Of a stretch of DNA of 64,000 bases, positions 29,866-31,399 are shown one piece after another. Made by a program: the position numbers and the translations under genes. Under the pieces are notes generated by a model. That model made no database searches. It saw only the letters and a program-made list of their open reading frames with translations, and was not told the origin of the DNA. The DNA comes from a virus. Location: positions 1 through 64,000 of the IMG/VR virus record IMGVR_UViG_3300007345_000027. One strand, written 5' to 3'. Positions within the stretch are counted from its first letter, which is position 1. Every line of letters begins with the position of its first letter.

Positions 29866-29879
29866 GTATCATAAGTTAC
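29866..29879. promoter_or_regulatory. NtcA-binding site GTA-N8-TAC
   Basis: tGTAtcataagtTACa, 8 nt upstream of a sigma70 -35 box. Confidence 0.65.
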
Positions 29880-29887
29880 ATAACTAC

Positions 29888-29916
29888 TTGACTACATAGT
29901 ACATAGGAGTTATAAT
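29888..29916 (+). promoter_or_regulatory. sigma70-type promoter
   Basis: TTGACT-N17-TATAAT; predicted start just before CGTTC at 29926. Confidence 0.8.
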
Positions 29917-29935
29917 ACTCTAGTACGTTCATCCA

Positions 29936-30136
29936 ATGTTAGCACTACTGCTGGCATTCACCCTTGCCCATCATAATGACGCTAATCCTTACGATTGGCA
30001 CATGTCTTGTGAAAGGTGGTTACAACGATCTACGGAAATCCGATTAGATCCAAACCTTGACCTTCGGTCGAAGTTGAGTCTAATCGCTTACCTCAAATCA
30101 AAAGTACCAGGTGAATGTAACGGAGTGTATACATAG
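29936..30136 (+). CDS. small hypothetical protein (hydrophobic N-terminus, 2 Cys) inside riboswitch loop
   Basis: 66-aa ORF whose start and stop sit in the P2 stem. Confidence 0.6.
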   Translation: MLALLLAFTLAHHNDANPYDWHMSCERWLQRSTEIRLDPNLDLRSKLSLIAYLKSKVPGECNGVYT

Positions 30137-30171
30137 GACGCAAGTAAGTCGCGGAACGGAGCGTTCATCCC

Positions 30172-30342
30172 ATGCTAGAATTACTTTTATATTCAAGTAT
30201 AACTTGTACTGATGCTGATGCATTATTGTTCAGGATCACAAAAAATAGATCAGAACTACCTCCACAAGTGGTGGTAGAATTGGTAGAGACCGTAAAGGAA
30301 TCTGTACCTGAATGTGAATTCTACTGGGACGCAAACGACTGA
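30172..30342 (+). CDS. small hypothetical protein MLELLLYSS...FYWDAND inside second riboswitch loop
   Basis: 56-aa ORF read by hand (below track cutoff); GGAG upstream; similar C...C layout to the preceding ORF. Confidence 0.6.
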   Translation: MLELLLYSSITCTDADALLFRITKNRSELPPQVVVELVETVKESVPECEFYWDAND

Positions 30343-30414
30343 AGGAACGGGAAAAAACGGATCCAGCGAAAGCTGAGAAGGTTAATTTTCACCCATTCTT
30401 TTAGGAGACCTACA

Positions 30415-30579
30415 ATGAACACCCTCAATCTCATTAAAAAGCAAATTAAAAAAGCAGCAGCACTGCACGACGCTCAAATCGCAATGACCACTTATCGTGG
30501 TGTCAAGTATGAGTGTAAGCAAGGTGCTGATGAAGTACATGGTACTTTCTGCTATCGCGGTCACACTTATAATAAGTGA
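30415..30579 (+). CDS. DUF4278-like small protein (YRG repeats)
   Basis: 54 aa MNTLNLIKK...TYRGVKY...CYRGHTYNK; AGGAG RBS; YRG peptides are the usual genes downstream of glutamine riboswitches. Confidence 0.7.
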   Translation: MNTLNLIKKQIKKAAALHDAQIAMTTYRGVKYECKQGADEVHGTFCYRGHTYNK

Positions 30580-30673
30580 GGCAATTATGCAAGCATTATA
30601 AGTAGTATCATTAGGTTCTATTTTTAGTATTGCATTTCTTGGTTTAGTTTACGGAAAGTTAACACTTTTACAT

Positions 30674-30702
30674 AAGAGAGGTTAAGAAACCTCTCTTTTT
30701 TT
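30674..30702 (+). terminator. intrinsic terminator
   Basis: aagagaggtt-aaga-aacctctctt followed by a T run. Confidence 0.8.
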
Positions 30703-30727
30703 GTACTTACATTAAAAAGTTACAATA

Positions 30728-30741: not shown

Positions 30742-30845
30742 CAAAACATTACTACATAGAATAGAATTAAGGTTCTGCTTATGTTCTGAAATTTTTTCTT
30801 TATTATGATTTTCTAAATTAATGTTAAAATTGCGTTGGAGGTGTG

Positions 30846-31025
30846 ATGCATAATCTCATTTCTCGCAACCAATTAGCAGAATGGAATCATTTTGAGAGTA
30901 CGCTAAACCGATGTAATGAGGAATTAGATCTGGTAAACGATTACTTTGACTGCTTAATTGAATGCGACGAAGACCAAGCTACATGTAAGCGAATCTGCAG
31001 AATTCTATTAGACACTGAGGGTTGA
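30846..31025 (+). CDS. small cysteine-rich protein (twin CxxxC) of cyanophage/cyanobacterial type
   Basis: MHNLISRNQL...DYFDCLIECD....CKRIC; GGAGG RBS. Confidence 0.65.
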   Translation: MHNLISRNQLAEWNHFESTLNRCNEELDLVNDYFDCLIECDEDQATCKRICRILLDTEG

Positions 31026-31040
31026 TCACCCTCTTTTTTT
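31017..31040 (+). terminator. intrinsic terminator
   Basis: gagggt-tgatc-accctc followed by T7. Confidence 0.75.
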
Positions 31041-31071
31041 GTGCTATACTCTATAATAATGAAAATAATTT

Positions 31072-31236
31072 ATGGACAAAGAAAGGTTAAAACTAATAGT
31101 TCGTAATTTGGAATTATTGGTTGATTCTCTAAAAGCTGAAGTTCTATCTGATGTGGAAGCATATAAATATCCAGAATCTACTTCAAAAAGAAAAGAACTA
31201 GATTACGATGAAATCTTTGAGGATGATGATGACTGA
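31072..31236 (+). CDS. conserved cyanophage hypothetical protein
   Basis: 54-aa ORF MDKERLKLIVRNLELLVDSLKAEV...DYDEIFEDDDD, read by hand. Confidence 0.65.
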   Translation: MDKERLKLIVRNLELLVDSLKAEVLSDVEAYKYPESTSKRKELDYDEIFEDDDD

Positions 31237-31399
31237 TACGACAAGAGCTAAACGTCTTGTAAAATTGCTTGAAAGACTTATCAAGCAAGATCATCTTTAT
31301 GATGAAGAAAGGATTGTAGAAATGAAAAAAGAACTTTCCAATCTTAAAGAACAAATTTCCGAAATTGAAAAACAAAATTACAAAGGATTTGGTAAATGA
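31229..31399 (+). CDS. small coiled-coil hypothetical protein
   Basis: ORF ending KGFGK, overlapping the thyX start. Confidence 0.6.
   Translation: MTDTTRAKRLVKLLERLIKQDHLYDEERIVEMKKELSNLKEQISEIEKQNYKGFGK

Follow-up and report, generated by a model that had tools for sequence, protein, structure and literature searches.

Nested glutamine-aptamer cores closed over two small genes: a probable glutamine ON switch in a cyanomyovirus transcript

The DNA analysed here (the window) is a 64,000-nucleotide stretch from a T4-like cyanomyovirus, positions 1 to 64,000 of the 97-kb virus contig of IMG/VR record IMGVR_UViG_3300007345_000027, and our subject is one compact unit within it (29888-30704) that consists of a promoter, three small + strand open reading frames (ORFs) of 66, 56 and 54 amino acids (aa), and a terminator. 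The three ORFs are counterparts of Syn9 gp196, gp197 and gp198, in that order. We consider it probable that the leader and body of the ~780-nucleotide (nt) phage transcript form a nested pair of glutamine-aptamer cores, which is likely to place the third gene, encoding a DUF4278 protein, under glutamine ON control. Comparison of related loci points to an outer core that is a glutamine-I-type three-way junction, with helix P2 closed over the first gene (ORF1) and the E-loop stacked on helix P3, and to an inner core, inside P3, that is a circularly permuted copy lacking an E-loop, in which P1 is capped by a 3-nt loop and P3 serves as the open stem. The riboswitch class, glutamine, is known; the architecture is new. 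Comparison gives good support to the structure and the coding content; the ligand response and the regulatory logic are inferred.

All conserved parts of the glutamine-I (glnA) aptamer were found at 29926-30350, spread over 425 nt. The parts of the outer core are as follows.

29926-29930, + strand: outer P1 5′ strand, CGUUC; it matches the RF01739 and RF01704 consensus and holds ligand-contact positions C1 and G2.
29932-29939, + strand: outer P2 5′ strand, UCC(A)AUGU, which includes the ORF1 AUG (29936) and covaries with 30131-30138.
30131-30138, + strand: outer P2 3′ strand, ACAU(A)GGA, which includes the ORF1 stop codon UAG (30134-30136).
30139-30146, + strand: outer junction, with linking strand CGC (30139-30141) followed by E-loop 5′ strand AAGUA (30142-30146); it aligns to the RF01739 consensus CGGAAGUA.
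30147-30151, + strand: P3 5′ strand, AGUCG, common to the outer and inner cores, with compensatory variants among relatives.
30336-30340, + strand: P3 3′ strand, CGACU, which in an alternative fold pairs with the Shine-Dalgarno sequence of the downstream gene.
30341-30350, + strand: E-loop 3′ strand GAAG (30341-30344), outer P1 3′ strand GAACG (30345-30349) and linchpin G30350, identical to the RF01739 consensus GAAGGAACG.

A sequence-only reading of the window had proposed a glutamine riboswitch with genes inside its stem-loops, and every motif it named lies where it was placed (for example CGTTC at 29926-29930, AGTA at 30143-30146, GAA at 30341-30343 and GAACG at 30345-30349). The E-loop strands AAGUA (30142-30146) and GAAG (30341-30344) flank P3 as in the RF01739 consensus, as judged by sequence match, and the 5-bp P3 helix, AGUCG/CGACU, encloses 184 nt where the consensus has a tetraloop. 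In solved structures glutamine lies in the P1/pseudoknot helix, contacting the C1:G40 and G2:C39 pair with a G18 triple, and a long-range linchpin pair closes the site (PMC6698751). Assigned after these structures, the ligand-site nucleotides of the outer core would be C29926, G29927, G30140, C30141, C30348, G30349 and G30350, with C30141:G30350 as a linchpin pair of the glutamine-II type (PMC6698751).

The material enclosed by P3 contains the inner core.

30154-30166, + strand: inner P1 hairpin, GAACG-(G)AG-CGUUC, returned both by RNAalifold on 22 compact relatives and in the minimum-free-energy fold of the window.
30168-30172, + strand: inner P2 5′ strand, UCCCA, which runs into the AUG of the second gene (ORF2); in the window the helix reaches ~30185.
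30325-30335, + strand: inner P2 3′ strand UGGGA (30325-30329), inner linking strand CGC (30330-30332), then AAA; the stretch is read as Trp-Asp-Ala-Asn, and its core is without variant under a parser that demanded it.

GGAG (30158-30161) doubles as the Shine-Dalgarno sequence of ORF2 and is partly buried in the inner P1 hairpin, whose connector between GAACG and the second CGUUC is 3-5 nt long and variable in sequence among relatives. By the same assignment (PMC6698751), the inner ligand site would comprise C30162, G30163, G30331, C30332, C30157, G30158 and G30159, with C30332:G30159 as its linchpin. Both cores thus keep CGUUC, CGC and GAACGG with a C:G linchpin. In Rfam the linking strand and linchpin read CGG...GAACGC in glutamine-I and CGC...GAACGG in glutamine-II. 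Since both phage cores read CGC...GAACGG, the two positions at which the RNA departs from the RF01739 consensus amount to one compensated linchpin pair.

Our comparisons draw on nine isolate loci, 80 IMG/VR loci found through the ORF2 protein and 120 IMG/VR loci found with the pattern ACGCAAGTA-N5-10-GGAACGG. A parser that demanded exact CGTTCA, GGAACGG and RAAGGAACG found the complete element in 195 of the 210 sequences, so the seeming invariance of these strings is partly by construction. Among the 195 parsed loci, 91 carry both embedded ORFs, 70 the inner one only, 10 the outer one only and 24 neither; in S-SM1, which lacks ORF1, outer P2 has shrunk to CCC-UUCG-GGG.

These compact forms connect the element to a known family. 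Against Rfam, the window gave no match at the gathering cut-off and none at E <= 10, and 11 ORF-bearing relatives, including Syn9, Syn19, S-CAM1 and S-CAM3, likewise gave none, as the sequence-only reading had foreseen for standard covariance searches; we attribute the silence of the window on RF01739 to its insertions of 200 nt and 188 nt. The fully compact loci L131 and L171, natural counterparts with collapsed loops, score 39.6 and 40.2 bits on RF01739, whose gathering cut-off is 35 bits, with a P3 (GGU...ACU and AGU...ACU) enclosing 38-43 nt that correspond to the inner core. The glutamine-aptamer identity first proposed from the letters is borne out in these relatives, and membership of the window itself in RF01739 is argued by homology and not by its own score. 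Assignment to the glutamine-II pseudoknot (RF01704) was tried and rejected: the RNA has an E-loop and a terminal P1 strand, collapsed relatives scored 25.5-35.7 bits at best, and the pairs of hairpin 2 are mismatched.

Outer P2 and P3 both covary across ~200 phage loci. The two strands of outer P2 change jointly (UCCaAUGUUAG/CUAACaUAGGA, UCUUAUG/CAUAAGA, UCUCAC/GUGAGA, UCACUaCUAUG/CAUAGaAGUGA), and the ORF1 stop codon switches between UAG, UGA and UAA along with its P2 partner strand. For 72 distinct strand pairs the cognate duplexes average -10.2 kcal/mol and the non-cognate ones -5.6 kcal/mol, with 0 of 5000 permutations reaching the cognate mean; the proposal that P2 encloses the 66-aa ORF holds. 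In P3, where AGUCG/CGACU is commonest, AAUCG occurs in exactly the two loci with CGAUU, all three loci with AGUCA have UGACU, and other forms include GGUCG/CGACU, GGACGG/CCGCCC and GGACGACG/CGCCGCCC. A second class of P3 places AGCCGACUC opposite AAAGCCGACU, or AGCCGACAC opposite AAUGCCGACU, a U-A to A-U exchange, and L119 has an entirely different 7-bp helix, GAGCAUA/UAUGCUC. Inner P2 also varies: its closing pair is C-G for U-A in L144, L175 and L209, a change that costs ORF2 an Asp, replaced by Gly, in L192 the helix is GAUUAUGG/CCAUAAUC instead, and the compact forms covary as well.

Unaided, RNAalifold returned the nested outer P1, outer P2, inner P1 hairpin and inner P2 from the 22 compact relatives. 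When P3 was added to this set, 96.5% of cells pair, and the covariation score was 0.255, compared with 0.094 in shuffles (0/500) and at most 0.077 in slid controls. The unconstrained minimum-free-energy fold of 29923-30432 has P2 around ORF1, the inner P1 hairpin and a 12-bp inner P2, with z = -4.9. Counts of G-U versus A-C did not discriminate the strand. P3 covariation and RNAalifold together uphold the second core that had been placed inside P3, and the comparison of loci with and without inserts, which had been put forward as a check, found all four ORF combinations, with helices that covary in ORF-bearing and compact loci alike.

These data bear on whether the aptamers might be relics, their sensing abolished by ORF insertions and their conserved sequences taken over by other tasks, for instance in translational coupling, in mRNA stability or as recombination sites. 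The ORF-bearing loci lack any Rfam match, and glutamine aptamers have affinities in the mM range (PMC6698751), so that closing a 200-nt loop might cost too much. Compensatory changes in P2 are found within ORF-bearing loci, however, which argues that selection for pairing acted when the ORFs were already there. Moreover, the ligand-site nucleotides are without variation in the loci examined, with search patterns that demanded them, and a single copy of the 41-nt junction (30134-30174) is present in each of 424 GenBank cyanophage records, with an identity of at least 99% in 230 of them, whereas the flanking coding DNA diverges to ~70%. We regard loss of sensing as quite improbable.

A subtler question is which GAACG pairs with which CGUUC. 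Each P1 strand is present twice, which allows swapped pairing, and because the copies are identical covariation cannot tell the partners apart. In a tandem arrangement CGUUC (29926) would pair with GAACG (30154) as a glutamine-II-like pseudoknot and CGUUC (30162) with GAACG (30345), P3 being kept; exchange between this fold and the GAACG-GAG-CGUUC hairpin could even be the mechanism. Base-pair energy is equal either way, the CGC linking strand and GAACGG are of the glutamine-II type, and glutamine-II RNA forms a domain-swapped dimer in crystals (PMC6698751). Infernal places unit 1 of S-SM1, read side by side, on both RF01739 (28.9 bits) and RF01704 (25.5 bits), and L119 retains a GAACGG-UA-CGUUC hairpin despite a degenerate inner junction. 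Both of these side-by-side scores lie under their cut-offs, whereas the nested reading passes; RNAalifold returns the nested fold, and the swapped one requires two crossing pseudoknots. In addition, among relatives parsed, AAGUA is confined to the position after outer P2 (unit 1), and GAAG (or AAAG) to that preceding the final GAACG (unit 2), so that a canonical E-loop beside P1 forms only if P3 joins both units. We therefore favor nesting, because only this arrangement passes the Rfam model, makes the outer core fully canonical, explains a variable 3-5 nt connector as something like a hairpin loop and needs no pseudoknot. Strand-swapped pairing, or exchange with it, is in our judgment unlikely.

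The two genes closed over by P2 helices, and the proteins they would encode, are listed below.

29936-30136, + strand: ORF1, 66 aa, Syn9 gp196 family (phrog_6471, E = 8e-31), with a hydrophobic N-terminus followed by a two-cysteine helical hairpin.
30172-30342, + strand: ORF2, 56 aa, Syn9 gp197 family (phrog_504, E = 2e-21), a two-cysteine helical hairpin.

The ORF1 start codon lies within the 5′ strand of outer P2 and its stop codon within the 3′ strand, and the last six codons of ORF2, TGG GAC GCA AAC GAC TGA, supply the 3′ strand of inner P2, the inner junction and the 3′ strand of P3. Median ratios of nonsynonymous to synonymous substitution (dN/dS, NG86) lie at 0.16-0.20 (ORF1) and 0.21-0.30 (ORF2), third codon positions are the most diverse, and length variants among relatives stay in frame. 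C25 and C61 of ORF1 are invariant, as is one cysteine of ORF2, the other being nearly so. AlphaFold predicts a helical hairpin for each protein, with a mean predicted local distance difference test score (pLDDT) of 82.5 for ORF1, exceeding 90 across the Cys-Cys core, and of 79 for ORF2, with 87-90 across its core; a fold search with the ORF1 model against the PDB gave no significant match. Taken together, the comparisons indicate that both are real protein genes under purifying selection, in agreement with the earlier proposal. That the ORFs are untranslated, and instead are structured RNA expansions left open by chance, could be argued from the lack of a Shine-Dalgarno sequence before ORF1, whose leader is only ~12 nt, and from the unusual stability of the whole-region fold (the z of -4.9 above). 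Set against this are the low dN/dS (0.16-0.30 overall), the third-position peaks, the in-frame length variants, the invariant cysteines, the confident helical hairpins and the strong PHROG matches, and we strongly disfavor the idea, giving it hardly any weight.

The families of ORF1 and ORF2 align with each other in hhalign at 91.9% probability (E = 7e-7), cysteines to cysteines. The two genes are paralogues, and this suggests that an aptamer-plus-gene unit was probably duplicated as a whole. Third-position diversity in the last six codons of ORF2 is 0.05, compared with 0.36 mid-ORF, and an RNA constraint is superimposed on coding in this tail. Two further observations concern the coding sequences. 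In codons 39-44 of ORF2 (30286-30303), GAGACCGTAAAGGAATCT is frozen at synonymous sites, with a third-position diversity of 0.00-0.22 (0.00-0.11 over codons 40-43) and a four-fold-degenerate Val codon that does not vary in 67 distinct sequences; GUAAAGGAA is similar to the anti-Shine-Dalgarno CU(G/A)AAGGAA, whose pyrimidine-tract partner it could also bind. The ORF1-family genes of L110, L124, L125, L141 and others end in Gly-Arg-Lys-stop (GGA CGC AAG UAA), reading through the aptamer junction into the E-loop in a frame that differs from that of the ORF2 tail.

It is also possible that the ORFs are neutral passengers: the riboswitch would govern the DUF4278 gene only, small genes would be gained and lost in tolerant P2 loops by T4-like modular shuffling, and their translation would carry no regulatory meaning. 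Core and downstream gene are indeed the same in all four presence/absence combinations, the family varies in its P2 loops, and the promoter sits in a covarying palindrome that resembles T4-type promoter-stem-loop cassettes. Against this, nearly every locus has its start and stop codons integrated into helices, paralogous ORFs occupy both loops, so that aptamer and ORF seem to have been duplicated in one piece, synonymous sites are frozen in the ORF2 tail, and ribosomes must open P2 and P3 whatever the intent. We find passenger status doubtful, though a serious contender.

The favored account, a nested sensor of glutamine, draws further on what lies downstream of outer P1, two features that the sequence-only reading had left out.

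30339-30407, + strand: expression platform, a sequestering hairpin in which CUGAAGGAA (30339-30347) pairs with UUCUUUUAG (30396-30404), overlapping the Shine-Dalgarno sequence AGGAG (30403-30407), in the minimum-free-energy fold.
30415-30579, + strand: the gene presumed to be regulated, starting 65 nt after P1 and encoding a 54-aa protein with two YRG motifs, of the Syn9 gp198 family and DUF4278 (IF17-like).

The window protein scores 21.4 bits against Pfam DUF4278, under the 25.3-bit cut-off, and 36 of 38 members of the downstream-gene family match DUF4278, with a best E of 1.8e-13. In all 187 loci with enough sequence the first downstream ORF bears YRG motifs, starting 21-67 nt after P1. DUF4278 is the mark of IF17, a glutamine-synthetase inactivating factor, and glutamine riboswitches of both types, which are ON switches, usually have it as their cargo (PMC6212724, PMC6698751).

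The platform also contains an inner GNRA-capped hairpin at 30364-30376. Among relatives, the purine R of CU-R-AAGG lies opposite C (45 times) or U (42 times) if it is G, and opposite U in 26 of 26 cases if it is A. RNAalifold on 40 short-form platforms found the same hairpin, with pair 5-43 being UA in 36 and CG in 3 and pair 6-42 being GU, AU or GC and never a mismatch. The 3′ strand of P3 and the E-loop is thus common to the aptamer and to the hairpin that sequesters the Shine-Dalgarno sequence, the layout expected of a glutamine ON switch, and this suggests that the element is one. A long platform form at 30356-30385, absent from many relatives, consists of ACGGAUCC, a covarying GNRA-capped hairpin and GAGAAGGUU; it is like the 3′ half of a canonical glutamine-I aptamer (CGGA..., P3 with a GAAA loop, GAAGG) and may be the remnant of a third unit. 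As a separate observation, GUUCAU of outer P1 (29927-29932) is complementary to AUGAAC at the start of the DUF4278 gene (30415-30420), and the two are paired in the minimum-free-energy fold. CGUUCAU/AUGAAC was considered as a second lock; it folds in the window and in several compact relatives but is absent where gene 3 starts AUGGCA, and it was kept out of the model.

We propose that, in the absence of glutamine, CGACUGAAGGAA, the 3′ strand of P3, E-loop and P1, would pair with the pyrimidine tract and the Shine-Dalgarno sequence, leaving the DUF4278 gene off. Binding of glutamine would stabilize P1, the E-loop and P3 and free the Shine-Dalgarno sequence, and the IF17-like protein would be made, as with the host gifB leader. 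A ribosome starting or ending on ORF1 would open outer P2; one on ORF2 would open inner P2 and, on reaching the stop codon of this ORF, would in addition sit over P3, the E-loop and outer P1. Since the start and stop codons of both ORFs lie inside P2 helices and the ORF2 stop lies in P3, translation of the ORFs and the ligand-competent fold should exclude each other by geometry, and nitrogen status may tip the operon toward the loop-encoded proteins or toward the DUF4278 protein.

Several points weigh against this account. The window itself has no Rfam match, and neither P1 pairing nor the choice of partner draws support from covariation, CGUUC and GAACG showing no variant among the loci examined and having been demanded by the search patterns and the parser. 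The anti-Shine-Dalgarno helix varies at few positions and has a weak RNAalifold energy (-3.6 kcal/mol). A ribosome ending at the ORF2 stop would melt this helix, so that gene 3 could be on by translational coupling regardless of glutamine. The start of the transcript, finally, is a prediction made from the promoter.

We can also imagine, tentatively, a two-input device in which two glutamine sites cooperate through the shared helix and ribosome traffic along both loop-encoded genes supplies the second input by unfolding the sensor. At low glutamine the two-cysteine loop proteins would be made and the IF17-like inhibitor would be off; at high glutamine the helices would lock, the loop genes would be shut and the inhibitor would be made. 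Such a device is possible, though we would not count on it; if true, it would be the first case of a riboswitch that closes its aptamer helices over translated genes, and also the first of a nested aptamer pair with circular permutation.

Comparison with known systems helps to place the phage RNA. It shares with glutamine-I aptamers (RF01739), such as the Synechocystis gifB/IF17 leader (Klahn et al. 2018, PMC6212724), the P1 strands CGUUC and GAACG, predicted to close a three-way junction, a variable P2 and an AAGUA/GAAG E-loop on P3. Like the gifB leader it stands upstream of a DUF4278 gene and would act through an inhibitory helix over the ribosome binding site with a translational ON logic (PMC6212724), and like gifB it has, by sequence likeness, an NtcA-type box at the promoter (PMC7760959). 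Unlike glutamine-I, its P2 closes over a translated 66-codon gene and not a 4-10 nt loop, its P3 closes over a second complete core and not a GAAA loop, and its linchpin is CGC/GAACGG (C:G) and not CGG/GAACGC; it is moreover phage-encoded and invisible to the Rfam model. Glutamine-II RNAs (Downstream-peptide, RF01704), known from marine picocyanobacteria, share with it the ligand-site nucleotides, the C:G linchpin CGC...GAACGG and downstream YRG/DUF4278 peptides (PMC6698751), and they carry GAACGG in the loop of the second helix, as does the first GAACG copy of the phage RNA. They are, however, compact H-type pseudoknots of ~60 nt lacking an E-loop, whereas the phage RNA has an E-loop, a predicted closing P1 and a helix around a second core and a gene. 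Tandem riboswitches, namely the tandem glycine riboswitch and tandem glnA RNAs (Weinberg et al. 2010, PMC2864571), likewise join two same-ligand aptamers to one expression platform, which may sharpen a low-affinity response. Known tandems lie side by side, whereas one phage core is circularly permuted inside P3 of the other and one helix is common to both.

Group I and group II introns hold ORFs in peripheral loops, an example being the phage T4 td intron with I-TevI. There too, long-range RNA helices close over a translated ORF, and folding and translation interfere; those elements, by contrast, are self-splicing ribozymes with homing-endonuclease or maturase genes. To our knowledge, no riboswitch has been described whose long-range helices close over a translated ORF.

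The signals that bound the transcript were located as follows.

29866-29879, + strand: GTA-N8-TAC palindrome, NtcA-box-like, read from sequence and a short way upstream of the -35 hexamer.
29888-29916, + strand: sigma-70-type promoter TTGACT-17-TATAAT, matching 11 of 12 consensus positions.
30674-30704, + strand: intrinsic terminator, a 10-bp stem followed by a T run, ending the ~780-nt three-gene transcript.

Transcription is predicted from the promoter to start at ~29923, ~1-3 nt 5′ of the aptamer start at 29926; a literature search for a transcription-start map of Syn9 found no published map. Among 164 distinct upstream sequences of relatives, 144 have a -35-like hexamer, 156 a -10-like hexamer and 107 an NtcA-like box at a matching distance (-62 to -50 from CGTTC). 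Because host gifB is likewise under NtcA control, the operon may combine NtcA and glutamine inputs, the NtcA box being putative. The -10 hexamer also lies within an inverted repeat (29905-29922) whose arms covary between phages (GGTCTAT-A-ATAGACC, GGTATATAATACC, GTGTTAGTATTAACAC), a pattern more suggestive of a hairpin or a cassette boundary than of a fixed protein operator. Promoter-stem-loop cassettes have been described in T4-type phages, and this repeat is reminiscent of them.

The element extends well beyond the GenBank records, into several hundred metagenomic contigs. Among the matches listed in a scan of bacterial contigs, which were mostly chance ones, only a Prochlorococcus single-cell contig (L248) bears it, and among 301 Cyanobiaceae genomes three matched the compact nested signature, none of them aptamer-like, so that the element was not found in the hosts searched. 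Riboswitches have been held to be rare in phages, and a 2017 survey listed just two glutamine aptamers in cyanophage genomes (PMC5473149), as against the 424 GenBank cyanophage records with the 41-nt junction; we ascribe the difference in visibility to insertions inside the aptamer, which hide the phage element from covariance-model annotation. Phage genome papers touch on the glutamine riboswitch only in passing. A literature search that did not include Ames and Breaker 2011 turned up no account of nesting or of an aptamer with genes in it, and the word 'nested' is absent from the supplements of Weinberg 2010 (PMC2864571).

If our interpretation is correct, whole translated genes in the loops of an aptamer, and a second aptamer in its P3, can be tolerated or exploited, and metabolite sensing and translation are set against each other on one RNA in a way that can be tested. 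Cyanomyoviruses would then carry a host-like nitrogen control unit, composed of an NtcA-type box, a glutamine sensor and an IF17-like protein, with which they may manipulate glutamine synthetase during infection. For annotation, RNA family searches should permit large insertions in variable loops.

Two minor observations concern neighboring sequences. One metagenomic phage contig with the glutamine element also carries a PhotoRC-II RNA (L137:2709-2804, 79.5 bits) ~3.3 kb upstream of it. In the window, three more small + strand ORFs (60, 54 and 63 aa) lie at 30843-31399, between the terminator and thyX.

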